Of a stretch of 64,000 bases of DNA, positions 7,834 through 61,546 are shown piece by piece; position 1 is the first letter of the stretch, and each line of letters starts with the position of its first letter. Made by a program: the position numbers and the translations under genes. The stretch comes from Mobula hypostoma (taxonomy: Eukaryota): NCBI RefSeq assembly GCF_963921235.1, contig NC_086097.1:12710001-12774000 (forward strand), in the 5' to 3' direction. The notes under the pieces were generated by a model, which saw only the letters and a list, made by a program, of their open reading frames with translations, had not been told where the DNA came from and ran no database searches.

Positions 7834-8120
7834 TGATCATCCACAATCAGTACCCCATTCCTGCCTTCTCCCCATACCCCTTCACTTCACTATCTTTATG
7901 AGCTCTATCTAACCTTTTCTTGAAAGCATCCAGAGAATTGGTCTCCACTGACTTCTGAGGCAGAGCATTTCACAGATCCACAACTCTCTGGGTGAAAAAG
8001 TTTTTCCTCAACTCCGTTCTAAATGACCTACCCTTTATTCTTAAACTGTGGCCTCTGGTTCTGGACTCCCCCAACATCGGGAACACGTTTCCTGCCTCTA
8101 GCGTGTCCAATCCCTTAATA
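7834..8120 (-). mobile_element. Older CR1 3' fragment (its extreme 3' tail lies at 4750-4815)
   Basis: Diverged homologue of the CR1 ORF2 end and 3'UTR, split by the young CR1 copy. Confidence 0.8.
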
Positions 8121-11100
8121 ATTGTAGAGTACCTGATAGCACGACGCTATCACAACTTGAGGCATTCTGGAGTTTGGAGTTCAATTCCGGTACCGTTCTA
8201 TAGGGAGTCACTGTAGATCCTCCTCATAGAATGTGTGGTTTTCCCCAGATGCTTGATTTTCCTCCCACAGTCCAAAGACATACTGGGTAGGTTAATTGGT
8301 CATTGTAAATTGTCCCGTGATTGAATTAGGGTTAAACTGGGGTTGTGGGGTTGTTGCTGCAGCATAGCTCAAAGGGCCAGAAGGACGTACTCAGCATTGT
8401 ATTGCTAAATGAATAAATATGGTAATAGACAATAGTAGAATTATAAATTGAAATACTTTATTGGAAGTAGTAACTCTCAGTTAAACTGCAGTGTCTGTGT
8501 ACAACAGTGTATCATAGACAAATAAAAGTACAAAGTAAATTTATTATCAAGGTATACAACCTGAGACTCATTTTCTAAGGCTATTTGTAGTAAATACAAG
8601 AAACACAAAAGAATAGATGAAAGAATGCACCCAACAGGACAAACAAACAACCAATGTGTAAAAGGCAACAAACTCTGCAAATACAAATAAATAATAATAG
8701 CAACAATAATAAATAAGCAATAAATATCAAGACCATGAGATGAAGAGTCCTTGAAAGTGTGTCCATAGGTTTTGGGAACAGTTTATTGATGGAACAAACG
8801 AAGTTAAGTGAAATTACCATTATTGGTTCAAGGCCGAGGGATAATAACTGCTCCTCATCTCAAGTAATGCAAACCAGTTCATCAAGTTTAAATATTCGCA
8901 CAAATGAAATTATCTTTTAAATATTTGTAATCATATCCAATAATTTAATGAACTCTTCACTGCAAACTGCACTTGACATCACCAATGGATCCAATCTCGG
9001 CACAAATTCTGGAGGATCATTTCTCTGTGTAGTCCATAAAGTCACAGAAGAGTACAGAACAGAAATAGATCCTTCAGTCCATCTAGTTCGTGCTGAACCA
9101 TTTAAATTGCCTCAGAATCTGTTCAAAACTGGTGGCTTTAAAATTATCTTCATGAATTTAGATACATTGTATTGAAAATTTTGATCACCAACATTTGCAT
9201 GACTAAATTCTCCACACCAATAATTTGTAAACAGCCAGAATTCTCAAACCTATTGCAGTATGTCACTGATTGTCCATAATCGGTTTGTCAGCTCTCATGA
9301 AAACCCTTAATGGCCATTAAATTCTTCAGGGATTTGCAACCCAGGTGAAACAACCTATCATGACAGTTGTAGAACCAGGTAATTTTAAATGGCTGTAAAT
9401 AGCTGCTGTGCCCAAGGCTTTTGCTCAGTACTGTAGTAATTGTGTGTATTGCACTGTACTCCAGCTGCAAAAAAAAATATGTGAATGATGATAAACCTGA
9501 TTCTGATATGGGTCTCTATTGTGGACTGGGAGTGGAAAGGAGTCAGGGAGGGGGGAATCTTGGTTGGGAAAAGGGGAAGGAGGAGCAGGGAATGGGAAGC
9601 ACAAGAAAGGCATTCTGTAATGATCAATAAGCCAATTGTTTGGAACCAAATGACCTTCCCCTGCCTGGTGTCTCAGAGCTGGGTGCACCCGTGTTATCCA
9701 CAGCCACTGGCACTCCTCTGCCACCTGTGCCACACCCCTCCATTCTCGCCATTCCCAATATTCTTTGCTCCTGTCAGATTTGACAGATGGGGGTCAGGGT
9801 TCAGGAGCATGGACTGCAAGATAACTGTGACCCTTCACTGCCATGGCCTCCTTACCCCTTTGCTGCAATTGTGATATGTCATCATCTTTCAACAGCTCAG
9901 CTGCTGAGATCTTGGTTGGATCCCTGTCTGGAACCTCCCCCTTAACTTTACCACCATGGGTGACACTACCAGGAGCTAAGCACCAGATTGCTAAACTCCA
10001 GACGGCATCACACTTGGAATCTCAGCAACTCACAAGCCTCTCCACCAGGACATGGTGACGACTCTTGGAGAAAATTGTCATCTTTTTGATGTGGTCAAGT
10101 ACCCTGCTATTATGGGCTTGCTAGCCAATTCTGTCTGGTAATCCTCCCTTCAACAAATTATCTCAACTTAATCTTAGACGGGTATATGGAGGAATTTAAG
10201 GTGGGGGCTTATATGGGAGGCAGAGTTTGAGGGTCGGCACAACATTGTGGACCGAAGGGCCTGTACTGTGCTGTACTATTCTATGTTCTATGTTCTATGT
10301 TCTAATCTCTGGTACATCGTTGCATTTGTAAACTGGTAGGTCTTGAAAATATTGAGTGAAGTCAAACTATAAGACATAGAAACATAGAAAATAGGTGCAG
10401 GAGTAGGCCATTCAAAGGAGTAGACCTCTCCAAAGTCTTTCCAAAATATTTATTTTGTCAAGATACAGCATGGGACAGGCACTTCTGGTCCAATGAGCCA
10501 CGTTGTCTAACAACCCACCTATTTAACACTACGGTAATCACAGGACAATTTACAAGGATCAATTAAACTACTAAGTCTTTGAATTTCTGGGAGGAAATCG
10601 GAGCATCCATGAGGAAACCCACACTCTCACGTGGAGAATATACAAACTCTTTGCCAACTGTGTCAGAATTGAACTCTGAACTCTGACCTCTCTCTGGTGC
10701 CCCTCCTTCTTTCCTTTCTCTCACCCTCTCTTACCCCTTCTCTTTCAGTCACCTGAAGAGAAGGGGTAAAAGGGGAGCCAGAATGGGGATTAGAAAAAAA
10801 GAAGGAAGGAGAAGGGGGAGAAATGACCAAAAGTTGGAAAAGCAATGCTTGTGCCAGAGGCGACACAGAAGGAACATGAGGTGTTGCTCCTCCAACCCAA
10901 GAGTGGCATAATTATTGCAGTAAGAAAGGCCATGGACTAACATGTGAGAATTGGAATTCAGTGTGAACTTAAAGTGGTTGGCCACCGGGAAATCCTGTCT
11001 GGTGTGAACGGAACAAAGGTGCTCAACAAAGCAGTCCCCCAGCCTACGTGGGGACTCACTGATGTAGAGGATTCTGCACCAACAACACTGGATACAGCAG

Positions 11101-15231: not shown

Positions 15232-16795
15232 GACCATAAGACGTAGGAGCAGAATTAGGCCATTCAGCCGATCGAGTCTGCACTGCCATTCATCATGGCT
15301 GATCCCAGATCCCACTCAACCCCATACACATGCCTTCTCACCACATCCTTTCTTGCCCTGACCAATCAGGAAGCTACCATCTTCTGCTTTAAATATACCC
15401 ACGGACTTGGCCTCCACTGCGTTCTGTTTCAGAGGATTCCACAGATTCACTACTCTCTAGCTAAAAATAATTCCTCCTTACCTCTGTTCTAAAAAGTTGA
15501 CTCACAATTATGAGACTGTTACCAAAATGCATCAATTGCACTATCTAAATCATTGACAAACAATATGAAAATTAACGATCCCAATACTGACACCGGAGGA
15601 ACATCAGTAGTCACTGGCAGCCAACCGAAAAAAGTCCAGTTTATTCCCATTTGCTGCCTCCTGCCTGTCAGCCATTCCGCTATCCATGTCAGTATCTTTC
15701 CCGTAATGCCATAGGATTTTATCCTGTTAAGCAGCCTCATGTGTGGTACCTTATCAAATGCCTTCTGAAAATCCACTGCCTCTCCTTTGTCCACCCTGCT
15801 CGATACTTCCTCAAAGAATTCTAACAGAATTGTTAGGCAAGATTTTCTTTTACAAAAACCATGCGGACCTTGATTTATTTTATCATTGGTCTCCAAGTAC
15901 CCCAAAACCTCATCCTTAATAATAGTCTTCAACACACTCTCAATCCCTGAGGTTAGCCTTACAGGCCTACAATTTCCTTTCTTTTGCCTTCCTTCCTTCT
16001 TAAAGAGTGGAGTGACATTTGCAATCTTCCAGTCCTCTGGGATCATGCCAGAATCAAGTGATTCTTGAAAGATCATGACCAATGCATCTGTTATCTCTTC
16101 AGCAACTTCTCTCAGGACTCTGGGATGCAGTGCATCTGGCCCAGGTAACTTATCCATCATAAGACCTTACTGTTTGCCTAGCACTTCTCCTTTCTAATAG
16201 CAGGGGCACTCACTCCTGCTGCCTGATACTCACGGACCTCTGGCTCACTGTTAGTATCTTCCACAGTGAAGACTGATACAAAATACTTATTAGTTTCACT
16301 TTCCATTTTTTTGTCCCTCATTACATCAGTAGCAACATTTAGCAGTGGTCCAATATCAACTCTCACTCCTTTTTACTCTTTATGTAACTAAAAAATATAG
16401 TATCCTGCTTTATATTATTGGCTAATTTGTCCTCATATTTAATCTTTTCCCTTCTTATAGCTTTTTTTGGTTGCCTTTTGTTGGATTTTAAAAGCTTCCC
16501 AATCATCCAACTTCTCACTCACTTTTGCTACCTTATATGCCCTTTCCTTGGCTTTTATGCAGTCCTTAAGTTCCCTTGTCAGCCAAGGTTGCCTACCCCT
16601 GCCATTGATAACTTTTTCTGAGGGACATATCTATCCTGTGCCTTGTGAATTAATCCCTGAAATGTCAGCCATCTCTGCTCTACCATGACCGCTGACAGTA
16701 TCCTCCTCCAATCTACCTGGGCAAGCACCTCTCTCATGTGTCTATAATTCCCTTTATTCCATGTGCTGCTTATGCTTCTTCCTCTCAAATGCAGT
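15232..16795 (-). mobile_element. Old CR1 LINE with internal deletion, nested within the PLE
   Basis: ORF 15519-16160 has PGPD, WKIANVTPLFKK and DFQKAFDKVPH. A CR1-type 3'UTR lies near 15235-15320. Confidence 0.9.
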
Positions 16796-17876: not shown

Positions 17877-19423
17877 CTGAAATATACTAGAAGTATTTTA
17901 AATTTTGAACACTGCGACGTAGAATAGTAGAAATAAATGCAATAAAACCCTCACAGTGAGTAGAATTTTTTTTACAGGGTAGTTTCATCACTGATTGCAT
18001 CTTTCACACTACACAGGTGCCTCTGATCATTAAACACCTCAAAAATTATATTTTGCTGATTCCTGATTCAGAATACAACAACTGAAAATTGAACCTCTGG
18101 CAATTTTCTCATTTTAACCTTTCCGCAGTGACTTACCTTGGAATGGCTGGCTAAGGAGTTTCTTTATTGAAATAGGGAAATCAAAACCTCGTTATATTCC
18201 TATACCTGGAAGTAGAAACAACACATCGGTCCTGAAAGGGTAAGTGCAGAATATGCAGATTCTGATGTCTAATTTTTCAACACCATTCCTCAAGGGGAGC
18301 CTGTTCCCATTCCGGGATTGTCCTCTGGGAGTGGTATTTTTATAACAGAAATTCCTAGTGTTAAGAGAAAAACTAATGGTTCGCTTCCATCTTGCACAGC
18401 ATGGTAGTACTGCCACTCATTAGCTCTGATGTGCTGCAAGTTGTGTTGAACTACACTAAACCTCAAAATGACACAAAATAACTGACTGAAAGGAAAACAA
18501 CATATTGTTCTTTTCTTGATACCTAAACATCATTATTTTGAATGCAACTAATTCACCAGTTGGTTTTAACCTTGGATTCAAACTGCTACTTCATGGGTGG
18601 AACATGCACTCCAGGTTCAAATTTCAATGCCATATGGGAGGAATGCACCTCTGTCAGAGGTGCCATTTTCAGATGGGGCGTTAAACAAAGATTTAGTCAT
18701 CCTTTTCACAATCACAGAAAAGGTCACGTGATTCAATCATGGGCTTTCCTCCCCCCCACTTCCCTACTCTGACCTTTTATCTCTTCTCACCTGTCTATCA
18801 CTTCCCCCTGAAACCCCTGCTCCTTCCTTTTTTTCCCTATGGTCCATTCTCCTCTCCAATCAGATTTCTTCTTCAGCCTTTGACCTTTTCCACCCACCTG
18901 GCTTCACCTATCACCTTCTAGCTATCTTCATTCCCTCCCCCTCCCCATCTTTTTTATTCTAGCATCTACCCCTTCCTTCTCAGTCATGAAGAAGTTTCTA
19001 AGCCTGAAGTGTCAGGAAGCCGCCCAACCTGCTGAGTTCCTCCAGGTTTTTTTTTGTGTGCTGCTCTGAATTTTCAGCATCTGCAGACTTCATCATATTT
19101 ATCAATCAGCAATGCTTTCTGGCTAATATCGCCAAACAGGTTAGTCTAGAAATGTGATCATTAGGACAGATAGCTTGGGCACACTTGCCATATTGGAACA
19201 ATGGACTTGAGAACTGAATGACCCAGTCCTGTGCCTGAAAACACTGCAACTTGTAACTTTCTGGTGCAGAGGAGTTGAAATTTGGATACAAGTATCAGGA
19301 TACTTTAAAGGGTAGACAGTGATGGCAAGGCCACTTCATTCTGTACAAAAAGGACGGGTTACACTTAAATCCTCGGGGGACCAATATCCTGGCAGGGAGA
19401 TTAGCGGGGGCTACTGAGGTGAC

Positions 19424-19430
19424 TTTAAAC
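19424..19430 (+). promoter_or_regulatory. Putative -1 ribosomal frameshift slippery site T TTA AAC
   Basis: X XXY YYZ heptamer in the ORF1 frame directly before the ORF1 TAG. The -1 frame is ORF2. Confidence 0.7.
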
Positions 19431-19438
19431 TAGAATGG

Positions 19439-22438
19439 TTGGGGGGTGGGAATCAAATTAAAGCGGCTAGGTGTGAGGAGGTTAGTTCACAACAGAGGGA
19501 TGGGAACCAGTGCAGAGAGACAGAGGGGTGTAAAGTGAGCGTAGAAGCAAAAAGTACAAAGGGGAAAAGTAAAAGTGGCAGGCCGACAAATCCAGGGCAA
19601 GCATTAAAAAGGGCTAAGAGAGTTGTAAAAGAGTGCCTGAAGGCTTTATGTGTCAATGCAAGGAGCATTCGTAATAAGGTGGATGAATTGAAAGTGCAGA
19701 TTGTTATTAATGATTATGATATAGTTGGGATCACAGAGACATGGCTCCAGGGTGACCAGGGATGGGAGCTCAACGTTCAGGGATATTCAATATTCAGGAG
19801 GGATAGACACGAAGGAAGGGGAGGTGGGGTGGCGTTGCTGGTTAAAAAAGAGATTAACGCAATAGAAAGGAAGGACATAAGCCGGGAAGATGTGGAATCG
19901 ATATGGGTAGAGCTGCGTAACACTAAGGGGCAGAAGACGCTGGTGGGAGTTGTGTACAGGCCACCTAACAGTAGTAGTGAGGTCGGAGATGGTATTAAAC
20001 AGGAAATTAGAAATGTGTGCAATAAAGGAACAGCAGTTATAATGGGTGACTTCAATCTACATGTAGACTGGGTGAACCAAATTGGTAAAGGTGCTGAGGA
20101 AGAGGATTTCTTGGAATGTATGCGGGATGGTTTTTTGAACCAACATGTCGAGGAACCAACTAGAGAGCAGGCTATTCTGGACTGGGTTTTGAGCAATGAG
20201 GAAGGGTTAATTAGCGATCTTGTCGTGAGAGGCCCCTTGGGTAAGAGTGACCATAATATGGTGGAATTCTTCATTAACATGGAGAGTGACGTAGTTAATT
20301 CAGAAACAAAGGTTCTGAACTTAAAGAGGGGTAACTTTGAAGGTATGAGACATGAATTAGCTAAGATAGACTGGCAAATGACACTTCAAGGATTGACGGT
20401 GGATATGCAATGGCAGGCATTTAAAGGTTGCATGGATGAACTACAACAATTGTTCATCCCAGTTTGGCAAAAGAATAAATCAAGGAAGGTAGTGCACCCG
20501 TGGCTGACAAGAGAAATTAGGGATAGTATCAATTCCAAAGAAGTAGCATACAAATTAGCCAGAGAAAGTGGCTCACCTGAGGACTGGGAGAAATTCAGAG
20601 TTCAGCAGAGGAGGACAAAGGGCTTAATTAGGAAGGGGAAAAAAGATTATGAGAGAAAACTGGCAGAGAACATAAAAACGGACTGTAAAAGCTTTTATAG
20701 ATATGTAAAAAGGAAAAGACTGATAAAGACAAATGTAGGTCCCCTGCAAACAGAAACAGGTGAATTGATTATGGGGAGCAAGGACATGGCAGACCAATTG
20801 AATAATTACTTTGGTTCTGTCTTCACTAAGGAGGATATAAATAATCTTCCAGAAATAGTAAGGGACAGAGGGTCCAGTGAGATGGAGGAACTGAGCGAAA
20901 TACATGTTAGTAGGGAAGTGGTGTTAGGTAAATTGAAGGGATTGAAGGCAGATAAATCCCCAGGGCCAGATGGTCTGCATCCCAGAGTGCTTAAGGAAGT
21001 GGCCCAAGAAATAGTGGATGCATTAGTGATAATTTTTCAAAACTCGTTAGATTCTGGACTAGTTCCTGAGGATTGGAGGGTGGCTAATGTAACCCCACTT
21101 TTTAAAAAAGGAGGGAGAGAGAAACCGGGGAATTATAGGCCGGTTAGCCTAACGTCGGTGGTGGGGAAACTGCTGGAGTCAGTTATCAAGGATGTGATAA
21201 CAGCACATTTGGAAAGCGGTGAAATGATCGGACAAAGTCAGCATGGATTTGTGAAAGGAAAATCATGTCTGACGAATCTCATAGAATTTTTTGAGGATGT
21301 AACTAGTAGAGTGGATAGGGGAGAACCAGTGGATGTGGTATATTTGGATTTTCAAAAGGCTTTTGACAAGGTCCCACATAGGAGATTAGTGTGCAAACTT
21401 AAAGCACACGGTATTGGGGGTAAGGTATTGGTGTGGGTGGAGAATTGGTTAGCAGACAGGAAGCAAAGAGTGGGAATAAACGGGACCTTTTCAGAATGGC
21501 AGGCGGTGACTAGTGGGGTACCGCAAGGCTCAGTGCTGGGACCCCAGTTGTTTACAATATATATTAATGACTTGGATGAGGGAATTAAATGCAGCATCTC
21601 CAAGTTTGCGGATGACACGAAGCTGGGTGGCAGTGTTAGCAGTGAGGAGGATGCTAAGAGGATGCAGGGTGACTTGGATAGGTTGGGTGAGTGGGCAAAC
21701 TCATGGCAGAAGCAATTTAATGTGGATAAATGTGAAGTTATCCACTTTGGTGGCAAAAATAGGAAAACAGATTATTATCTGAATGGTGGCCGATTAGGAA
21801 AAGGGGAGGTGCAACGAGACCTGGGTGTCATTATACACCAGTCATTGAAAGTGGGCATGCAGGTACAGCAGGCGGTGAAAAAGGCGAATGGTATGCTGGC
21901 ATTTATAGCGAGAGGATTCGAGTACAGGAGCAGGGAGGTACTACTGCAGTTGTACAAGGCCTTGGTGAGACCACACCTGGAGTATTGTGTGCAGTTTTGG
22001 TCCCCTAATCTGAGGAAAGACATCTTTGCCATAGAGGGAGTACAAAGAAGGTTCACCAGATTGATTCCTGGGATGGCAGGTCTTTCATATGAAGAAAGAC
22101 TGGATGAACTGGGCTTGTACTCGTTGGAATTTAGAAGATTGAGGGGGGATCTGATTGAAACGTATAAGATCCTAAAGGGATTGGACAGGCTAGATGCAGG
22201 AAGATTGTTCCCGATGTTGGGGAGGTCTAGAACGAGGGGTCACAGTTTGAGGATAGAGGGGAAGCCTTTTAGGACCGAGGTTAGGAAAAACTTCTTCACA
22301 CAGAGAGTGGTGAATCTGTGGAATTCTCTGCCACAGCAAACTGTTGAGGCCAGTTCATTAGCTATGTTTAAAAGGAAGTTAGATATGGCCCTTGTGGCTA
22401 CAGGGGTCAGGGGGTATGGAGGGAAGGCTGGGTTCTGA
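19439..22438 (+). CDS. CR1 ORF2, intact APE endonuclease + reverse transcriptase; the annotated start is TTG
   Basis: 999 open codons with motifs NARS, ITETW, GDFN, SDH and FADD. The first in-frame ATG is at 20042. Confidence 0.95.
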   Translation: MGGGNQIKAARCEEVSSQQRDGNQCRETEGCKVSVEAKSTKGKSKSGRPTNPGQALKRAKRVVKECLKALCVNARSIRNKVDELKVQIVINDYDIVGITETWLQGDQGWELNVQGYSIFRRDRHEGRGGGVALLVKKEINAIERKDISREDVESIWVELRNTKGQKTLVGVVYRPPNSSSEVGDGIKQEIRNVCNKGTAVIMGDFNLHVDWVNQIGKGAEEEDFLECMRDGFLNQHVEEPTREQAILDWVLSNEEGLISDLVVRGPLGKSDHNMVEFFINMESDVVNSETKVLNLKRGNFEGMRHELAKIDWQMTLQGLTVDMQWQAFKGCMDELQQLFIPVWQKNKSRKVVHPWLTREIRDSINSKEVAYKLARESGSPEDWEKFRVQQRRTKGLIRKGKKDYERKLAENIKTDCKSFYRYVKRKRLIKTNVGPLQTETGELIMGSKDMADQLNNYFGSVFTKEDINNLPEIVRDRGSSEMEELSEIHVSREVVLGKLKGLKADKSPGPDGLHPRVLKEVAQEIVDALVIIFQNSLDSGLVPEDWRVANVTPLFKKGGREKPGNYRPVSLTSVVGKLLESVIKDVITAHLESGEMIGQSQHGFVKGKSCLTNLIEFFEDVTSRVDRGEPVDVVYLDFQKAFDKVPHRRLVCKLKAHGIGGKVLVWVENWLADRKQRVGINGTFSEWQAVTSGVPQGSVLGPQLFTIYINDLDEGIKCSISKFADDTKLGGSVSSEEDAKRMQGDLDRLGEWANSWQKQFNVDKCEVIHFGGKNRKTDYYLNGGRLGKGEVQRDLGVIIHQSLKVGMQVQQAVKKANGMLAFIARGFEYRSREVLLQLYKALVRPHLEYCVQFWSPNLRKDIFAIEGVQRRFTRLIPGMAGLSYEERLDELGLYSLEFRRLRGDLIETYKILKGLDRLDAGRLFPMLGRSRTRGHSLRIEGKPFRTEVRKNFFTQRVVNLWNSLPQQTVEASSLAMFKRKLDMALVATGVRGYGGKAGF

Positions 22439-23164
22439 GTTGGATGATCAGCCATGATCATAATAAATGGCGGTGCAGGCTCGAAGGGCCGAATGGCCTA
22501 CTCCTGCACCTATTTTCTATGTTTCTATGTTTCTATGTTTCTTATTTGCCAGTTATGCATGCATACCACATGCAAAGTGATTGTGCCCTTGGTGGACAAA
22601 TTATAGGGACAATAGTTGTGCTTGTAGTGAGGGTTAACATGGCTCTGAGATTACTCTCTGTGATGCTTTTCCACAATTTCTCATATTAGAAAGGCTGTCC
22701 AACGAGTCTCTAGATCTTTAGACTGATGTGGAATACACTATTTAAAGCTACTGTAGATTTACAATAATCAACTTTCTTTTAATTATGTGCAGATTATTCC
22801 TCAGCAATGACACCTCTTTAGTAATTAATGTACTTCACCTTCACAGAGGGTCACCCTGCTTTGTTAAAAACTGTTGCTTTATCAGACAAGACCCACAGGG
22901 ATTAAAACAACAGCAGTTTACCAACCAGAAGCTGTTAAAAGGAATTGAAATCAGCTTCCTTTGCTTCTCATCATCCTGCTGTTGCTAATAGAAGTGAAAT
23001 ATCGTATTCACCTAAACGAGAACAATGCCACCTTTTCAAAAAACAATAAATAAAAATAAAAACAGATGTTAAGATATTATGCAGAAAGCATATGCAGACT
23101 CTGGGTCAGGGGTTAAAGCTTTAAAATATTATTGTGATGGAACAGATAGTGTAAAGCAATGTAA

Positions 23165-23718: not shown

Positions 23719-24351
23719 TAATGTCTATTTAAGCAGAAAATGTGCAAAAGGGACTGACTTCAAAAGATGTCAAGTCCTCAATTTAAACGAAGAAAATGGA
23801 ATAGAAGCATTTGCTAAAAGGCTAAGAGTTGGATGGAACTGGAGGAGAATCATTAATATGATGTACACTGTTCCATATTATCTAATGTTTTGGTTGATAC
23901 GTGCGCTGAAATATACCTGTCAGGTGAAATTATTGCTCCTGGCTATGATGCTAAATAACAAGTCTCGGTGAAAAGTGCTTTTGGGTTGCATCTCCACTAT
24001 GTATTTAGCCCTCCCCACAAGTGAGAACATCTACAACGAGCACTGTCAGAGGAAAGAGCATCCATTATCAAGGACTCTCACCACCCAGGTCATGCTCTCT
24101 TCTCACTGCTTCCATCAGGGAGGTACAGGAGCCTTAGATCCCACACCACCAGATTCAAGAGCAGTTATTGCCCCACAACCGGATTGGGTAGCCTCACAAA
24201 CTCCAATCTGAATTGATTCCACAAGCTAAGAACTCATTTTAAAGATCTCTACAACTTGAGTTCTCAATATGGATTACTTATTTATTATTATTTTTTTTAT
24301 TTGCACTTGCACAGTTTGTTACCTTTTGCATAGTGGTTGTTTATCCATCTT

Positions 24352-24939
24352 CCCGGGGGAAGCGACAGTGGCCCTGCCTCCGGCACAGAGTCTGGCCCTG
24401 TAGCTCAGAAGGGTAGGGCAAGGAAGAGGAGGGCAGTTGTGATAGGGGACTCGATAGTAAGGGGGTCAGATAGGCGATTCTGTGGACGCAGTCCAGAGAC
24501 TCGGATGGTAGTTTGCCTCCCTGGTGCCAGGGTCCGGGATATTTCTGATCGTGTCCAAGATATCCTGAAGTGGGAGGGTGAAGAGCCAGAGGTCCTGGTA
24601 CATATAGGTACCAATGACATAGGTAGGAAAAGGGATGAGGTCCTGAAAGAAGAATATAGGGAGCTAGGAAGGGAGTTGAGAAAAAGGACCGCAAAGGTAG
24701 TAATCTCGGGATTACTGCCTGTGCCACGCGACAGTGAGAGTAGGAATGCAATGAGGTGGAGGATAAATGCGTGGCTGAGGGATTGGAGCAGGGGGCAGGG
24801 ATTCAAGTTTTTGGATCATTGGGACCTCTTTTGGCGCAGGTGTGACCTGTACAAAAAGGACGGGTTACACTTAAATCCTAGGGGGACCAATATCCTGGCA
24901 GGGAGATTAGCGGGGGCTACTGAAGTGACTTTCAACTAG
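24352..24939 (+). CDS. CR1 ORF1 C-terminal SGNH/GDSL esterase-like domain (5'-truncated)
   Basis: Blocks VIGDSIVRG, LPGA, HIGTND and DGLHLN. The TTG start at 24337 lies in flanking DNA. Confidence 0.9.
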   Translation, partial: PGGSDSGPASGTESGPVAQKGRARKRRAVVIGDSIVRGSDRRFCGRSPETRMVVCLPGARVRDISDRVQDILKWEGEEPEVLVHIGTNDIGRKRDEVLKEEYRELGRELRKRTAKVVISGLLPVPRDSESRNAMRWRINAWLRDWSRGQGFKFLDHWDLFWRRCDLYKKDGLHLNPRGTNILAGRLAGATEVTFN

Positions 24940-24944
24940 AATGG

Positions 24945-27944
24945 TTGGGGGGTGGGAATCAACTTAAAGAGGCTAGGTGTGAGGAGGTTAGTTCACAACA
25001 GAGGGATGGGAACCAGTGCAGAGAGACAGAGGGGTGTAAAGTGAGCATAGAAGCAAAAAGTACAAAGGGGAAAAGTAAAAGTGGCAGGCCGACAAATCCA
25101 GGGCAAGCATTAAAAAGGGCTAAGAGAGTTGTAAAAGAGCGCCTGAAGGCTTTATGTGTCAATGCAAGGAGCATTCGTAATAAGGTGGATGAATTGAAAG
25201 TGCAGATTGTTATTAATGATTATGATATAGTTGGGATCACAGAGACATGGCTCCAGGGTGACCAGGGATGGGAGCTCAACGTTCAGGGATATTCAATATT
25301 CAGGAGGGATAGACATGAAGGAAGGGGAGGTGGGGTGGCGTTGCTGGTTAAAAAAGAGATTAACGCAATAGAAAGGAAGGACATAAGCCGGGAAGATGTG
25401 GAATCGATATGGGTAGAGCTGCGTAACACTAAGGGGCAGAAGACGCTGGTGGGAGTTGTGTACAGGCCACCTAACAGTAGTAGTGAGGTCGGAGATGGTA
25501 TTAAACAGGAAATTAGAAATGTGTGCAATAAAGGAACAGCAGTTATAATGGGTGACTTCAATCTACATGTAGACTGGGTGAACCAAATTGGTAAAGGTGC
25601 TGAGGAAGAGGATTTCTTGGAATGTATGCGGGATGGTTTTTTGAACCAACATGTCGAGAAACCAACTAGAGAGCAGGCTATTCTGGACTGGGTTTTGAGC
25701 AATGAGGAAGGGTTAATTAGCAACCTTGTCGTGAGAGGCCCCTTGGGTAAGAGTGACCATAATATGGTGGAATTCTTCATTAACATGGAGAGTGACGTAG
25801 TTAATTCAGAAACAAAGGTTCTGAACTTAAAGAGGGGTAACTTTGAAGGTATGAGTCGTGAATTAGCTAAGATCGACTGGCAAATGACACTTAAAGGATT
25901 GACGGTGGATATGCAATGGCAGGCATTTAAAGGTTGCATGGATGAACTACAACAATTGTTCATCCCAGTTTGGCAAAAGAATAAATCAAGGAAGGTAGTG
26001 CACCCGTGGCTGACAAGAGAAATTAGGGATAGTATCAATTCCAAAGAAGTAGCATACAAATTAGCCAGAGAAAGTGGCTCACCTGAGGACTGGGAGAAAT
26101 TCAGAGTTCAGCAGAGGAGGACAAAGGGCTTAATTAGGAAGGGGAAAAAATATTATGAGAGAAAACTGGCAGAGAACATAAAAACGGACTGTAAAAGCTT
26201 TTATAGATATGTAAAAAGGAAAAGACTGATAAAGACAAATGTAGGTCCCCTGCAAACAGAAACAGGTGAATTGATTATGGGGAGCAAGGACATGGCAGAC
26301 CAATTGAATAATTACTTTGGTTCTGTCTTCACTAAGGAGGACATAAATAATCTTCCAGAAATAGTAAGGGACAGAGGGTCCAGTGAGATGGAGGAACTGA
26401 GCGAAATACATGTTAGTAGGGAAGTGGTGTTAGGTAAATTGAAGGGATTGAAGGCAGATAAATCCCCAGGGCCAGATGGTCTGCATCCCAGAGTGCTTAA
26501 GGAAGTAGCCCAAGAAATAGTGGATGCATTAGTGATAATTTTTCAAAACTCGTTAGATTCTGGACTAGTTCCTGAGGATTGGAGGGTGGCTAATGTAACC
26601 CCACTTTTTAAAAAAGGAGGGAGAGAGAAACCGGGGAATTATAGGCCGGTTAGCCTAACGTCGGTGGTGGGGAAACTGCTGGAGTCAGTTATCAAGGATG
26701 TGATAACAGCACATTTGGAAAGCGGTGAAATGATTGGACAAAGTCAGCATGGATTTGTGAAAGGAAAATCATGTCTGACGAATCTCATAGAATTTTTTGA
26801 GGATGTAACTAGTAGAGTGGATAGGGGAGAACCAGTGGATGTGGTATATTTGGATTTTCAAAAGGCTTTTGACAAGGTCCCACACAGGAGATTAGTGTGC
26901 AAACTTAAAGCACACGGTATTGGGGGTAAGGTATTGGTGTGGGTGGAGAATTGGTTAGCAGACAGGAAGCAAAGAGTGGGAATAAACGGGACCTTTTCAG
27001 AATGGCAGGCGGTGACTAGTGGGGTACCGCAAGGCTCAGTGCTGGGACCCCAGTTGTTTACAATATATATTAATGACTTGGATGAGGGAATTAAATGCAG
27101 CATCTCCAAGTTTGCGGATGACACGAAGCTGGGTGGCAGTGTTAGCAGTGAGGAGGATGCTAAGAGGATGCAGGGTGACTTGGATAGGTTGGGTGAGTGG
27201 GCAAACTCATGGCAGAAGCAATTTAATGTGGATAAATGTGAAGTTATCCACTTTGGTGGCAAAAATAGGAAAACAGATTATTATCTGAATGGTGGCCGAT
27301 TAGGAAAAGGGGAGGTGCAACGAGACCTGGGTGTCATTATACACCAGTCATTGAAAGTGGGCATGCAGGTACAGCAGGCGGTGAAAAAGGCGAACGGTAT
27401 GCTGGCATTTATAGCGAGAGTATTCGAGTACAGGAGCAGGGAGGTACTACTACAGTTGTACAAGGCCTTGGTGAGACCACACCTGGAGTATTGTGTGCAG
27501 TTTTGGTCCCCTAATCTGAGGAAAGACATCTTTGCCATAGAGGGAGTACAAAGAAGGTTCACCAGATTGATTCCTGGGATGGCAGGTCTTTCATATGAAG
27601 AAAGACTGGATGAACTGGGCTTGTACTCGTTGGAATTTAGAAGATTGAGGGGGGATCTGATTGAAACGTATAAGATCCTAAAGGGATTGGACAGGCTGGA
27701 TGCGGGAAGATTGTTCCCAATGTTGGGGAAGTCCAGAACGAGGGGTCACAGTTTGAGGATAGAGGGGAAGCCTTTTAGGACCGAGGTTAGGAAAAACTTC
27801 TTCACACAGAGAGTGGTGAATCTGTGGAATTCTCTGCCACAGCAAACTGTTGAGGCCAGTTCATTAGCTATGTTTAAAAGGAAGTTAGATATGGCCCTTG
27901 TGGCTACAGGGGTCAGGGGGTATGGAGGGAAGGCGGGGTTCTGA
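24945..27944 (+). CDS. CR1 ORF2, intact endonuclease + reverse transcriptase
   Basis: 999 open codons; the first in-frame ATG is at 25548. Confidence 0.95.
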   Translation: MGGGNQLKEARCEEVSSQQRDGNQCRETEGCKVSIEAKSTKGKSKSGRPTNPGQALKRAKRVVKERLKALCVNARSIRNKVDELKVQIVINDYDIVGITETWLQGDQGWELNVQGYSIFRRDRHEGRGGGVALLVKKEINAIERKDISREDVESIWVELRNTKGQKTLVGVVYRPPNSSSEVGDGIKQEIRNVCNKGTAVIMGDFNLHVDWVNQIGKGAEEEDFLECMRDGFLNQHVEKPTREQAILDWVLSNEEGLISNLVVRGPLGKSDHNMVEFFINMESDVVNSETKVLNLKRGNFEGMSRELAKIDWQMTLKGLTVDMQWQAFKGCMDELQQLFIPVWQKNKSRKVVHPWLTREIRDSINSKEVAYKLARESGSPEDWEKFRVQQRRTKGLIRKGKKYYERKLAENIKTDCKSFYRYVKRKRLIKTNVGPLQTETGELIMGSKDMADQLNNYFGSVFTKEDINNLPEIVRDRGSSEMEELSEIHVSREVVLGKLKGLKADKSPGPDGLHPRVLKEVAQEIVDALVIIFQNSLDSGLVPEDWRVANVTPLFKKGGREKPGNYRPVSLTSVVGKLLESVIKDVITAHLESGEMIGQSQHGFVKGKSCLTNLIEFFEDVTSRVDRGEPVDVVYLDFQKAFDKVPHRRLVCKLKAHGIGGKVLVWVENWLADRKQRVGINGTFSEWQAVTSGVPQGSVLGPQLFTIYINDLDEGIKCSISKFADDTKLGGSVSSEEDAKRMQGDLDRLGEWANSWQKQFNVDKCEVIHFGGKNRKTDYYLNGGRLGKGEVQRDLGVIIHQSLKVGMQVQQAVKKANGMLAFIARVFEYRSREVLLQLYKALVRPHLEYCVQFWSPNLRKDIFAIEGVQRRFTRLIPGMAGLSYEERLDELGLYSLEFRRLRGDLIETYKILKGLDRLDAGRLFPMLGKSRTRGHSLRIEGKPFRTEVRKNFFTQRVVNLWNSLPQQTVEASSLAMFKRKLDMALVATGVRGYGGKAGF

Positions 27945-28077
27945 GTTGGATGATCAGCCATGATCATAATAAATGGCGGTGCAGGCTCGAAGGGCCGAAT
28001 GGCCTACTCCTGCACCTATTTTCTATGTTTCTATGTTTCTATGTTTCACTGTGTGCAGTGTTTCACTGATTCTATTG

Positions 28078-38771: not shown

Positions 38772-39190
38772 GGGTGAAAGAGTACAGAGAAAACTTACAA
38801 GGATGTTGCCAGAACTGGAGGACCTGAGTTATAAGGAAGGATTGAATAGATTAGAACTTTATTTCTTGGAATGCAGAAGGTTGAGAGGAGATTTGATAGA
38901 GGTGTACAAAATTATGAGGGGTATAGACGGAATAAATGCAAGCAGGCTTTTTCCACTGAGGTTGGGTGGGGCTACAATCAGAGGTCATGGGTTGAGGGTG
39001 AAAGGTGAAAAGTTTAAGGGGAACAGGAGGGGAAACTTCTTCACTCAGAGGTCATAAGAGTGTGGAAGTTTAAGGGAAGTTTGGGTAGGTACATGGATGG
39101 TAGGGATATGGAGAGCAATGGTCCCTGTGCAGATTGATGGGAGTTGGTAGTTTAACTGGTTTGGCATGGACTAAATGGGCTGAACGCCCT
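38772..39190 (+). mobile_element. Old CR1 3' fragment
   Basis: ERVQRKLTRMLP...RRLRGDLIEVYKI. Similar fragments lie at ~37680-38040, 50862-51785 and 58445-58715(-). Confidence 0.85.
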
Positions 39191-43774: not shown

Positions 43775-44975
43775 TTGAATTGAATTGATCTTATTTCTTA
43801 CATCCTTCACATACATGAGGAGTGAAAGTCTTTACATTATATCTCCATCTAAATGTGCAATGTGCAGTCATAGTAATTTATAGGAAATAGAACAGTCAAT
43901 GTAATGTAGAGTACACTCAAGTCAGCGTGAGCTCATCAGTCTGATGTCCTGGTGGAAGAAGCTGTGCGGGAGCCTGTTGGTCCTGGCTTTTATGCTGGGG
44001 TACTGCTTCCCGGATGGTAGCAGTTGGAATAGATTGTGGTTGGGGTGACTCGGGTTCCCAATGATCCCACAGGCCCTTTTTACTCACCTGTCTTTGTAAA
44101 TGTCCTGAATCATGGGAAGCTCACAATTGCAGATGCACTGGACCTTCCGCACCACTCTCTGCAGAGTCCTGCGATTAAGGGAGGTACGGTTCCCATACCA
44201 GGCAGTGATGCAGCCAGTCAGGATACTGTCAATTGTGCCCCTGTAGAAAGTTCTTAGGACTTGGGGGTCCATACTAAACTTCCTTCACTGTCTGAGGTGA
44301 AGGAGCTGCTGTTGTGCCTTTTTCACCACACAGCTGGTGTGTACAGACCACGTGAGGTCCTCTGTGATGTGGATGTCGAGGAACTTGAAGCTATTTCCCC
44401 ACTCAACCCCAGATGCATTGATGTCAATAGGGGTTAGCCCGTCTCCGTTCCTCCTGTAATCCACAACCAGCTCCTTTGTTTTTGCAACATTGAGGGAGAG
44501 GTTGTTTCCTTGACACCACTGTGTCAGAGAGATGACTTCTTCCCTGTAGGCCACCTCATTATTGTTTGAGATAAGGCCAATCAATGTAGAGTCGTTGGTA
44601 AATTTAATTAGCAGATTGGAGCTGTGGGTGGCAATACAGTCATGGGTATAGAGGGAGTAAAGGAGGGGCCTCAGTACGCAGTCCTGAGGGGCTCCTGTAT
44701 TGAGAGTGAGAGGGGTGGAGGTGAGGGAGTCCACTCTTACCACCTGCTGGTGATCTGACAGGAAGTCCAGGATCCAGTTGCACAAGGCAGGGTCAAGGCC
44801 GAGGTCTCTGAGCTTCTTGTCAAGCCTGGATGGAACTATGGTGTTGAATGCTGAACTGTAGTCCAAGAACAGCATTTCTCACACAAGCATCCTTCTTCTC
44901 CAGATGTGTAAGGTTGGTATGTAGAGCAGTGGCTATTGCGTCATCTGTCGATCGGTTGTATCAGTAGGCAAATTC
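43775..44975 (-). mobile_element. Rex1/Babar LINE, 5'-truncated
   Basis: MLFLDYSSAFNT, TGAPQ and IKFTND (mutated catalytic motif), with a (TTCAA)n-type tail. Confidence 0.9.
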
Positions 44976-50710: not shown

Positions 50711-52009
50711 CTGCAACCAAAATTAAGCAACATGCAACTTTGGTGCTTTTCAAGAAAAATCAAAGTTTGAATGCTAGCTTTAGGAGAAGGGGTGTGGTAA
50801 TTGTACGATGAGCTTCTATTATATACAGCATAGAAACAAGATTTGGGGTGTAGTGTACAGTGAGGAAGACTATCGTGGCTTGCATGGACCAGCTGGAAAA
50901 ATGGGCGGAAAAAGTGCAGATGGAATTTAATGCAGACAAGTGTGAGGTGTCGCACTTTGGTAGGATCAACCAAAGTAGGTCTTACACAGTGAATGATAGG
51001 GCATGAAGGAGTGTGGCACAACAAAGAGGTCTGGGAAAATAGGCCCATAATTCATTGAAAGTTTGATAGGGTTGTAAAGAAAGCTTTTTGCCCATTGGCC
51101 CTCTTAAATCAAAGTATTTAGTATATAAGATGGGATGTTCATTTGAAGTTTATAAGACATTGGTGAGGCCTAATTTGCAGTACTGTGTGCAGTTTTGGTC
51201 ACCCACCTACAGGAAAGATGTAAATAAGGTTGAAAGAATACAGAGAAAATTTATAAGGATGCTGCCAGGTCTGGAGGACCTGAGTTATAAGGCAAGACTG
51301 AATAGGTTAGCAACACACACAAAATGTTGTAGGATCTCAGCAGGCCAGGCAGCAGCTATGGAAAAGAGTACAGTCAACGTTTTGTGCCAAGACCCTTCAG
51401 CAGGAAGATTGAGAGGCAATTTGATAGACGTACACAAAATTATGAAGGGTATAGATAGAGTAAATGGAAGCAGTTTTTTTCTATTGAGGTTCAGTAGGAC
51501 TACAACTAGAGGTCATGGGTTAAGGGTGAAAGTTGAAATGTTAAAGGGGAACATGATGGAAAACCTCTTCGCTCGGAGATTTATGAGAGTAGAATGAACT
51601 ACCAGTGCAGGTGGTGCATGCAAGCTCGATTTCAATGCCTAAGAAAAGTTTGGATAGGTACATGGATGGTAGGGCTATGGAAGGCTATGGTCCTTGTGAA
51701 GGTCGATGGGAGTAAGTAGTTATACTGCCACAACATGGACTAGATAGGTCCTGTTTCTGTGCTGTAATTTTCTCTGACTATGACGCTGTGATATAGAACT
51801 CAACAGCACAATACAGACCCTTCGGCCCACAATGTTGAGCTGACCTTTTAACCTGCTCAAAGGTCAATCTAACTCTTTCCTCCGACATAGCCCTCCATTT
51901 TACTATCATCCATCTGCTCATCCATCTGCCTATCTAAAAGTTTCTTTATTGTATTAATTTGCATGGTTACATTTTTATGTGTCTCTGCAGGTGTCACCGT
52001 CCCCTTAAT

Positions 52010-53028
52010 CCACAGTACGTGTGCTTGCAACACTGTGTATCTGACAGAGTGATCAGCAGCACTGGGGCTCCACAGGGGACTGTCTTGTCTCCCTTTCTCT
52101 TCACCATTTACACCTCGGACTTCAACTATTGCACAGAGTCTTGTCTTCTTCAGAAGTTTTCGGATGACTCTGCCATAGTTGGATGTATCAGCAAGGGAGA
52201 TGAGGCTGAGTACAGGGCTACGGTAGGAAACTTTGTCACATGGTGTGAGCAGAATTATCTGCAGCTTAATGTGAAAAAGACTAAGGAGCTGGTGGTAGAC
52301 CTGAGGAGAGCTAAGGTACCGGTGACCCCTGTTTCCATCCAGGGGGTCAGTGTGGACATGGTGGAGGATTACAAATACCTGAGGATACGAATTGACAATA
52401 AACTGGACTGGTCAAAGAACACTGAGGCTGTCTACAAGAAGGGTCAGAGCTGTCTCTATTTCCTGAGGAGACTGAGGTCCTTTAACATCTGTCCGACGAT
52501 GCTGAAGATATTCTACAAGTCTGTGGTGGCCAGTGCTATCATGTTTGCTGTTGTGTGCTGGGGCAGCAGGCTGAGGGTAGCAGATGCCAACAGAATCAAC
52601 AAACTCATTCGTAAGGCCAGTGATGTTGTGGGGATGGAACTGGACTCTCTGACGGTGGTGTCTGAAAAGAGGATGCTGTCCAAGCTGCATGCCATCTTGG
52701 TCAATGTCTCCCATCCACTACATAATGTACTGGGTGGGAACAGGAGTACATTCAGCCAGAGACTCATTCCACCGAGATGCAGCACAGAGAGTCATAGGAA
52801 GTCATTCCTGCCTGTGGCCATCAAACTTTACAACTCCTCCCTTGGAGAGTCAGACACCCCGAGCCAATAGGCTGGTCCTGGACTTATTTCATAATTTACT
52901 GGCATAATTTACATATTACTATTTAACTATTTATGGTTCTATTACTATTTATTATTTATGGAGCAACTATAACAAAAACCAATTTCCCCTGGGATCAATA
53001 AAGTATGGCTATGACTATGACTATGACT
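52010..53028 (+). mobile_element. Rex1/Babar LINE 3' part with open RT C-terminus
   Basis: TGAPQGTVLSPFLF and FSDD, with a (CTATGA)n tail. Confidence 0.9.
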
Positions 53029-59888: not shown

Positions 59889-61546
59889 TCAGACTGTTAA
59901 CCGAGAGAAAAAGGAGGTCACCCTCAAAGCGGGTCTCCCACCTGGTGAACCGCTTCTCTCACTTTCCACCTCCGATGTTTGAGCCACCCTGAGCAGGGTG
60001 AATGTACGGAAGGCAGCTGGTCCAGATGAAATACCTGGCCGTATGCTCAGAGTCTGTGCAGGACAGTTGGCTGGGGTCTTCACGGACATTTTTAATCTGT
60101 CTCTGGCCCAGGCAGTTGTCCCCATAAGCTTCAAGATCGCCACCATCACACCAGTGCCGAAGCATTCCACTGCCACGGGCCTGAATGACTTCCGTCCAGT
60201 TGCACTCACCCCCATCATTGCAAAGTGCTTTGAGAGACTGGTTCTATCACATCTGAAATCCTGTCTGCCCTCTACCCTGGACCCCCATCTATTTGCCTAT
60301 CACACCAACAGGTCAACAGAGGATGCCATCTCCAAAGCACTTCACTCTGCCCTGACCTACCTGGACAGCCCCAAGTTTTACGTCAGGATGTTGTTCATTG
60401 ACCTTAGTTCAGCATTCAATATTGTGATCCCCTCCAAGCTGATTACCAAACTTCGCCAGCTTGGTATCAATGTATCCCTCTGCAATTGGACCATGAACTT
60501 TCTGACTAACAGACCCCAATCAGTTAAGTTAGACAACCTCTCCTCCTCCACTCTTACCCTGAACACCGGCGTGCCTCAAGGCTGTGTGCTGAGCCCTCTT
60601 CTGTACTCCCCTTTCACTTATGACTGCGTTCCTGTACATGGTTCTAACTCCATAATCAAGTTAGCAGACGACACCACAGTGGTTGGTCTGATCAGAGGGA
60701 ATGACAAGACGGCCTACAGGGACGAAGTCCAGCACCAGGCTGCGTGGTGTGCCGGCAGCTACATGGCCCTTAACGCCCAGAAGACCAAGGAGATCATTGT
60801 GGACTTCAGGCACGCCAGGAGTCACACTCACCTCCCCATCTACATCAATGGAACTGTAGTGGAGCGTGCATCAAGCTTCAAGTTCCTTGGTGTCCACATT
60901 TCCGAGGATCTCACCTGGTCCCTGAACTCCTCCATCCTGGTCAATAAGGCACAACAGCGCCTTTATTTCCTGCGGAGCATGAAGAAAGCTCACCTCCGTC
61001 CCAGGATACTGACGGACTTTTACCGCTGTACCATTGAGAGCATACTCACCAACTGCATCTCAGTGTGGTATGGCAATTGTCCCATATCGGACCGCAAGGC
61101 ACTTCAGAGTGTGGTGAAAACTGCCCAGCGGATTATCGGCACCCAACTGCCCACCATTGAGAACATCTACCATAAACGCTGCCTGGGCAGGGCGAAAAGC
61201 ATTATCAGGGTTGCATCTCACCCTAACCATGGACTTTTTACTCTCCTCCCATCCGGTAGGCGCTACAGGAGCCTCCGCTCCTGCACCAGCAGGTACAGGA
61301 AGAGCTTCTTCCCTGAGGCTGTGACCCTGCTGAACCTCACATCACAGCGCTAAGCAGTATTGCACCCGTATTGTACTGTCTCAGTACTTTTATATTTGTG
61401 TGCTGTAGCACTTCTTTTATTCGCAGTTATTTTGTAAATAACACTATTTTTTGCATTTCTGGTCAGATGCTAAATGCATTTCATTGGCTTTGTATCTGTA
61501 CTTGGCACAATGACAATAAAGTTGTATCTAATCTAATCTAATCTGA
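59889..61546 (+). mobile_element. Rex1/Babar LINE, 5'-truncated, with open RT ORF 59998-61353
   Basis: [23 protein letters not shown] and LADD, with an (AATCT)n tail. No endonuclease domain is retained. Confidence 0.92.

Follow-up and report, generated by a model that had tools for sequence, protein, structure and literature searches.

A candidate programmed -1 frameshift signal at the ORF1-ORF2 junction of a CR1 retrotransposon family from Mobula hypostoma

We analyzed a 64,000-nucleotide (nt) stretch of the genome of the ray Mobula hypostoma (NCBI RefSeq assembly GCF_963921235.1, contig NC_086097.1, positions 12,710,001 to 12,774,000 of the forward strand; hereafter, the window), which carries copies of a CR1 long interspersed nuclear element (LINE). 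In this family, the first open reading frame (ORF1) encodes an SGNH esterase, and the second (ORF2) encodes an endonuclease and a reverse transcriptase (RT) in the -1 frame. The junction between them carries the heptamer U_UUA_AAC, an adjacent stop codon and a G-tract 10 nt downstream, and this motif is probably a programmed -1 frameshift signal that would yield an ORF1-ORF2 fusion protein. What the sequences show is the motif with its phase, an open -1 frame, fixation of the motif in the family and its nucleotide-level conservation in ray-like and bird-like copies; the slippage itself and any stimulation by the G-tract are inferred. We consider a -1 frameshift the best explanation because the heptamer is the family form and is conserved at the nucleotide level between ray-like and bird-like elements.

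The ORF1-ORF2 junction in copy A

The following features of the CR1 copy termed copy A were identified, with positions given on the window and all on the forward (+) strand.

19341..22542 (+): CR1 LINE copy A, 5'-truncated, with the 3' end (CTATGTTT)n (blastn against copy B)
19341..19433 (+): last 30 codons of ORF1, the C-terminus of the SGNH esterase (...ATEVTLN*, TAG at 19431-19433)
19415..19417 (+): TGA, two codons upstream of the slippery site, that shuts the -1 (ORF2) frame
19418..22438 (+): ORF2 frame, -1 relative to ORF1, with a basic linker of about 75 residues, the endonuclease and the reverse transcriptase
19424..19430 (+): slippery heptamer T_TTA_AAC in the ORF1 phase (ACT TTA AAC), directly 5' of the stop
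19431-19433 (+): ORF1 stop codon TAG
19435..19461 (+): out-of-frame ATG in the ORF1 +1 frame, which opens an 8-codon ORF and cannot yield ORF2
19439..19441 (+): in-frame TTG at +9, a possible near-cognate restart codon if ORF2 were reinitiated
19441..19450 (+): conserved G-tract GGGGG-NN-GGG, 10 nt 3' of the heptamer, a candidate stimulator
22510-22542 (+): tandem repeat (CTATGTTT)n of four units, closing copy A

Upon direct reading of the DNA, the heptamer, the TAG, the upstream TGA, the ORF overlap of about 16 nt and the frame open to 22438 were all found where a first-pass annotation of the window had placed them. The two frames overlap by 16 nt with the heptamer inside, and the ORF2 frame comprises 1006 open codons that encode an APE endonuclease and an RT, as matched by the Pfam domains Exo_endo_phos and RVT_1. 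The first in-frame ATG of ORF2 lies at 20042, within the endonuclease, as annotated, but it is codon 209 of the open frame; the annotated number of 202 is obtained only by counting from the TTG at 19439. Similarly, a GG is present 6 nt after the heptamer, where the annotation began a G-rich tract at typical stimulator spacing, but the conserved tract starts at 19441 after a spacer of 10 nt.

Counted over both strands, the window contains 11 instances of TTTAAAC, only one of which is followed by a stop codon. The chance of a canonical heptamer lying in phase at the last two codons was approximately 0.4% under the element's own codon usage and about 1.3% given the residues x-Leu-Asn. Copy A is truncated at 19341, and only the final 30 codons of its ORF1 remain. 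As this copy is unable to make a fusion itself, the frameshift claim concerns the CR1 family; the annotated esterase-endonuclease-RT fusion stands as the best explanation for the family and falls for copy A.

TTTAAAC is the family form of the heptamer

A second copy, copy B, lies 5.5 kb downstream, shows 99.1% identity to copy A over 3201 nt (blastn) and keeps approximately 200 codons of ORF1. It contained the following features.

24334..24939 (+): ORF1 esterase tail, stop to stop, with the element starting at about 24350
24924..27944 (+): ORF2 frame of 1006 codons; (CTATGTTT)n comes after it, at 28016-28047
24930..24936 (+): heptamer variant T_TTC_AAC, rare in the family

The ORF1 frame of copy B matched Pfam Lipase_GDSL_2 (E 9e-17) and the ORF1 protein of PDB entry 4C1B, from the L2-type element ZfL2-1 of zebrafish (E 6.5e-29). 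Taken alone, the two window junctions give one case for the heptamer (TTTAAAC in copy A) and one against it (TTTCAAC in copy B). We aligned the copy B junction (24760-25120) to contigs of four runs (DNA or unlabelled, with four organism labels) of the 23 listed. At position 24933, A accounted for 455,720.6 of a summed contig depth of 455,788.2 (99.98%) in run X1, 735,377.8 of 738,887.2 (99.5%) in X5, and all of it (100%) in X13 (13.2 of 13.2) and X15 (58.3 of 58.3), where contig depth is not equal to copy number. Since A makes up at least 99.5% of contig depth in the four runs, TTTAAAC is the family form and the TTTCAAC of copy B is a rare variant; the broken form accounted for less than 0.5% of depth in every run. 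No further change in 24930-24939 was found among the 40 best-supported of 77 contig rows, and ORF1 wobble sites near the junction varied among the contigs of the four runs. Additionally, the loose contig ends of diverged subfamilies were divergent upstream and then showed TTTAAA or TTT after AGT, GCT or GGT.

Conservation of the junction in bird-like DNA

A metagenome scan was performed with an esterase alignment whose first row lacked the junction. The scan gave 22 loci; 12 were translated and provided seven complete junctions, while the coordinates of the remaining 10 place their ends short of the junction. The junctions are called bird-like after the resemblance of their peptides to the Limosa model P0197, and the contigs carry no host name. 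Locus L006 was left out as decayed (TTTTAAAAAAA, no stop), as were L004 and L008, which end before the junction, L020, which has no recognisable junction, and the bacterial L021. Four bacterial SGNH loci were the only matches in genome contigs and were set aside, and repeated scans found no relative in viral contigs.

TTTAAAC followed by TAR (TAA or TAG) was present in five of the seven bird-like junctions (5/8 with L006 counted), and the remaining two contained TTTAAAA-TAG and TTTACGA-TAG, respectively; each of these two meets a stop in the -1 frame within 49 codons. T was the last base of every codon preceding Leu, although the encoded residue varied (T, C, A or S). Upon ungapped comparison of eight junctions (copy A and the seven bird-like ones), the heptamer columns agreed in 8, 8, 8, 8, 7, 7 and 6 of 8. 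In particular, upstream ORF1 wobble positions agreed in 3.9 of 8 junctions on average, and those inside the heptamer agreed in 8, 8 and 6. After the 10-nt spacer, four G and then two G were invariant (8/8) at six columns, which include ORF2 wobble positions. The motif common to the ray-like and bird-like junctions is TTTAAAC-TAR-N7-GGGGG-NN-GGG, or more precisely GGGG(G)-NN-(G)GG in its G-tract. In 7 of 9 junctions, the -1 frame was shut one to five codons upstream; downstream, it was open for 1004, 1006 and 953 codons in the intact copies.

As judged from these alignments, the junction is conserved at the nucleotide level beyond what the protein would need, within lineages of limited independence. 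The first-pass annotation had let its proposal depend on heptamer conservation, and this test did not refute it, as TTTAAAC is the family form and is retained at the nucleotide level from ray-like to bird-like elements.

Ends of ORF1 proteins

At the protein level, the esterase core was followed by LN* in 61 of the 91 matches that reached the core end, with proteins from shark, ray, eel, turtle, lizard and bird-like sources among them; the input to this count included eleven rows of the search profile itself. U_UUA_AAC requires T as the last base of the preceding codon, and no codon for E, Q, K, M or W offers this. A residue without a T-ending codon preceded LN in 1 of 52 distinct ends, compared with a background of 17% (p 6e-4, uncorrected for kinship). 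Furthermore, five database models of frame-broken copies (Hypanus twice, Limosa, Chrysemys and one more) read the other frame as FKL, and these models inform on DNA, not on translation.

We also found a second ORF1 group, including named members from the crab Chionoecetes, whose proteins end in QGN*, SKN, FFR, GFL or LN. A heptamer-fitting tripeptide was present in 102 of 116 crab-like tails against 22 expected, and the tails switched among GN, KN, FF/FL/GF and LN. The residue before GN was Gln in 23 of 28 cases, and that before LN was never Gln (0 of 58), which is what G_GGA_AAC and U_UUA_AAC, respectively, would require. In a FastTree phylogeny of 164 esterase cores built without the tails, the five end labels needed 27 changes, and the GN, KN and F-type ends were interleaved. 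These crab-like ends look like swapping among canonical shifty heptamers. No read-through model for the QGN/SKN/FFR group was found among the best 120 protein matches.

Several database entries deserve separate mention. A crab-like ORF1 cluster nested among QGN* relatives (P0329, P0330, P0334, P0343, P0298 and P0301) ends in CRG*, VSR* or VGR*, has no heptamer-fitting tripeptide and may use another route, e.g., readthrough or reinitiation. The LINE-type ORF1 esterases P0358 and P0376 are filed under metagenome-assembled genomes of anammox bacteria (Ca. Scalindua, Brocadiaceae) and are probably animal DNA. The public gene models P0002, P0197, P0014 and P0004, which bear the host-gene names hydroxyacid oxidase 2, adaptin ear-binding protein, NCOA5 and VSIG10L2, contain or consist of CR1 ORF1/ORF2 and are probable mis-annotations.

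Predicted mechanism and the candidate stimulator

In the frameshift model, most ribosomes would stop at the TAG and release the ORF1 protein, while a minority would slip back by one base and produce an esterase-linker-endonuclease-RT fusion. Tandem slippage of tRNA-Leu and tRNA-Asn would give the junction ...EVTLN-LEWLGGG, and the predicted junction peptide of the fusion is ...EVTLNLEWLGGG. Pausing might be aided by the stop codon in the A site. U_UUA_AAC is listed, together with G_GGA_AAC, A_AAA_AAC and G_GGU_UUU, with the heptamers on which mammalian ribosomes shift most (PMC5009743).

The conserved G-tract at a fixed distance of 10 nt is a candidate for the stimulator. A role as a folded stimulator of the coronavirus type was not borne out, which weakens the argument that the first-pass annotation drew from the G-rich tract: there was no hairpin, consensus structure or long-range partner, and the spacing is 10 nt rather than the 5-9 nt at which RNA-structure stimulators sit from the shift site (PMC3542737). 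A first stem for a stem-loop or pseudoknot 5-9 nt downstream was not found with tools that do not model pseudoknots directly. Since the G-tract has no fold-back partner, a bound protein or a two-tier G-quadruplex would be a more likely means of stimulating slippage than a pseudoknot. One Rfam match at the junction (E 0.9) was attributed to chance, and a strong "upstream" duplex of copy A was discarded, as it lies in flanking DNA outside the element. The cassette most likely represents an unusual, non-folding type of -1 frameshift signal in a major vertebrate LINE group.

We also raise, tentatively and with considerable doubt, a broader scenario in which an ancient -1 frameshift is shared across esterase-ORF1 CR1 elements from crab-like ones to those of sharks, turtles, lizards and birds. 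The product would be a Gag-Pol-like fusion, the heptamer would have been swapped repeatedly, and the vertebrate switch would be a protein, either a host binder of G-rich RNA or the ORF1 protein, on the G-tract at 10 nt.

Several observations weigh against frameshifting. With regard to structure, the ray junction folded no better than shuffled sequences (z +0.57), better-than-shuffle folding was found in only one of six loci (L001, z -2.3), an RNAalifold consensus fold of the junctions contained 0 pairs, and no downstream duplex partner for the G-tract beat shuffled sequence. A G-quadruplex, of the two-tier type, appeared in the predicted minimum-energy fold in only two of six loci. With regard to start codons, an in-frame ATG was present at +3, +6 or +9, that is, one to three codons past the heptamer, in all seven bird-like junctions, and one bird-like locus (L012:4502-4506) has a TAATG stop-start overlap directly after the heptamer, which is the SART1 arrangement. 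The DNA basis is a single ray-like family with the loose ends of its relatives, plus seven bird-like loci that are related and therefore not independent. Asn and Gly are common helix caps. No fitting tripeptide was present in 23 of the 164 rows, and heptamer switching in invertebrate-like ORF1s is a protein-level prediction. Additionally, search profile A1 held the LN columns and profile A5 was seeded from proteins chosen by their ends, so the counts of LN and other ends are enriched. Finally, stop codons compete with frameshifting (PMC9841425).

Alternative explanations

The main rival, which we consider unlikely overall, is that a separate ORF2 protein is made by termination-reinitiation at an ATG or near-cognate codon one to three codons past the heptamer (the TTG at 19439 in the window), with the heptamer, stop and G-tract serving as a termination or pausing context or persisting as a leftover of older frameshifting. 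It holds this rank because the ATG described above is found in all seven bird-like junctions, one of them within TAATG. The first-pass annotation had described ORF2 as lacking a usable ATG, which holds for the window family, with 208 codons free of in-frame ATG, and not for the bird-like junctions. The shark- or ray-like ORF2 predictions P0177 (M-W-Q-G) and P0131 also start at this point, where M may mean GTG or TTG. Reinitiation has been reported for SART1, where it needs an element past the stop, and proposed for L1 (PMC5972666, PMC2881922, PMC10275272), and caliciviral restart is largely insensitive to start-codon change and tolerates non-AUG codons (PMC5972666). However, reinitiation does not account for the X_XXY_YYZ pattern and its fixed wobble bases, nor for the rule of a T-ending codon or the switching between ends that fit a heptamer. 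The position of the ATG also wanders, and it is missing from the two window copies as well as from the FKL models FKLNLQ, FKLDVQ, FKLGNL and FKLEVK (Hypanus, Chrysemys and Limosa), although these copies may be decayed or use a near-cognate codon. In bird-like lineages, the ATG just past the stop may add reinitiation as a second route, and frameshifting and reinitiation could coexist.

A very unlikely alternative is an RNA-processing signal, in which a poly(A)-type hexamer and a G-rich element would give an ORF1-only mRNA or act in splicing. TTTAAA is a weak poly(A) hexamer, and such signals can have a G-rich downstream element; the layout of an A/T hexamer followed by unpaired G-runs, with no fold-back partner for the G-tract, fits this idea. 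It does not account for why the codon phase is exact, why a stop is adjacent or why the seventh base is conserved, nor for the GN- and FF-type ends of relatives, and the translation of ORF2 itself is left unexplained. The bases after AG vary (AA, GT, AC and CT), so no splice donor is conserved; a donor TAG-GTATG was rejected, as it occurs in only 2 of 9 junctions.

Least probable, and strongly disfavoured, is protein constraint or inheritance alone, with Leu-Asn capping the last esterase helix, Gly-x-Gly opening the linker and the heptamer as a by-product: in 61 proteins, LN does close a segment that resembles an amphipathic helix, the G-tract is read as glycines in the ORF2 frame and copy B keeps both frames intact with a broken heptamer, but synonymous positions are fixed in both frames while their neighbours are scrambled, the x-L-N chance of about 1.3% applies per independent lineage, and the broken form is below 0.5% of depth in the four runs.

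Classification of the element and other copies in the window

The window-family ORF1 showed 42-48% identity to reptile and frog proteins, and its ORF2 showed 41-45% identity to the bird-like loci. By these identities, the element is placed as a CR1 LINE with an esterase ORF1. The window as a whole is animal DNA and, judged by its protein matches (Hypanus, Mobula and Leucoraja), closest to rays. Short tandem repeats at the 3' end and frequent 5' truncation are typical of CR1; (CTATGTTT)x4 forms the 3' end of both copies, and all near-identical window copies are either 5'-truncated or cut by the window end. Judged by domain content, the element is an ordinary member of the vertebrate CR1 subgroup with a type IVB ORF1, which is composed of a zinc finger/leucine zipper and an esterase (PMC4120745, PMC3905857).

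Copies A (19341-22542) and B (~24350-28047) have the same orientation, and each has an unbroken 1006-codon ORF2 frame, which, together with their 99.1% identity, points to a young family. Two further copies of 96-97% identity were located on the reverse (-) strand, at 7835-4805 (-), which begins past the junction, and at 63999-62473 (-), which is cut by the window end. Older diverged CR1 fragments with no recognisable ORF1/ORF2 junction were present at 15244-16755 (-), 7834-8137 (-), 38776-39051 (+) and 50884-51691 (+). RT frames of another LINE group, which we take to be Rex1/Babar-like, were found at 59983-61353 (+), 51938-52870 (+) and 44285-44878 (-); the first two showed about 25% identity to the CR1 RT.

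Comparison with known systems

LINE ORF2 translation has been described as an open question (PMC3894237), and the worked-out cases, L1 and SART1, are reinitiation. SART1, with its UAAUG coupling, and mammalian L1 resemble the window family in being bicistronic, with ORF2 dependent on ORF1 translation; they differ in making a separate ORF2 protein, with no slippery heptamer described in these sources, whereas the window family has no in-frame ATG over its first 208 codons (PMC5972666, PMC2881922, PMC10275272). For the Dictyostelium elements TRE5-A and TRE3-A, which are APE-type elements without long terminal repeats (non-LTR), a -1 frameshift is stated as needed for ORF2 (PMC5911963). These elements differ from CR1 in clade, ORF1 and host, and the statement is that of a review, given without signal or primary data; with these elements, the notion of a -1 frameshift already has a precedent among LINEs. 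ZfL2-1, whose ORF1 esterase is homologous (PDB 4C1B), has reportedly been proposed to express ORF2 by suppression of the ORF1 stop, an in-frame readthrough that would also give an esterase-ORF2 fusion.

No CR1 frameshift proposal was found in the open literature, a coverage that ends short of the 1997 chicken and turtle CR1 papers and Kapitonov and Jurka 2003. The terms "frameshift" and "stop codon" are absent from the main text of the type IVB CR1 papers (PMC4120745, PMC3905857). In the first 300,000 of its 609,807 characters, PMC11835228 uses "ribosomal frameshift" of retroviruses, and "CR1" is absent from the first 300,000 of the 449,034 characters of PMC5009743. CR1 accounts for 11.8% of chicken genomic DNA (PMC11835228), and it is abundant in the genome of the window. 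The conserved 27-nt cassette makes the ORF2 question directly testable. If the frameshift is real, the CR1 polymerase would be fused to a membrane-binding esterase and the ORF2 starts given in annotations would be incorrect. A frameshift signal whose stimulator does not fold, and may be based on a protein or a quadruplex, would then exist in many copies in vertebrate genomes. Natural stimulation of frameshifting by a G-quadruplex was "not currently known" in a 2016 review (PMC5009743).

Viral -1 frameshifting, as with U_UUA_AAC of infectious bronchitis virus (IBV) and in retroviral gag-pol and pro-pol, shares with the CR1 junction the heptamer, the phase, a short overlap and the arrangement in which a polymerase ORF in the -1 frame follows a structural-type ORF (PMC3542737, PMC5009743). 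Unlike the viral sites, CR1 has an unpaired G-tract at 10 nt instead of a stem-loop or pseudoknot at 5-9 nt, the stop lies directly after the heptamer, and the host element is a non-LTR retrotransposon. In this respect, the nsp2 shift of PRRSV, the virus of porcine reproductive and respiratory syndrome, is of interest: it is trans-activated by nsp1beta and PCBP at CCCANCUCC, an unstructured motif at a fixed distance of 10-11 nt 3' of the shift site (PMC5009743). The PRRSV motif is C-rich and directs a -2 shift to the TF ORF, whereas that of CR1 is G-rich, and a protein that binds it is a candidate only. The 10-nt spacing of the CR1 tract is nevertheless nearer to the protein-bound PRRSV motif (11 nt) than to RNA structures (5-9 nt). 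If a protein does switch the CR1 shift, the junction would be a counterpart, in a cellular genome, to the poly(C) mechanism of PRRSV, through which the host or the element could tune ORF2 output.

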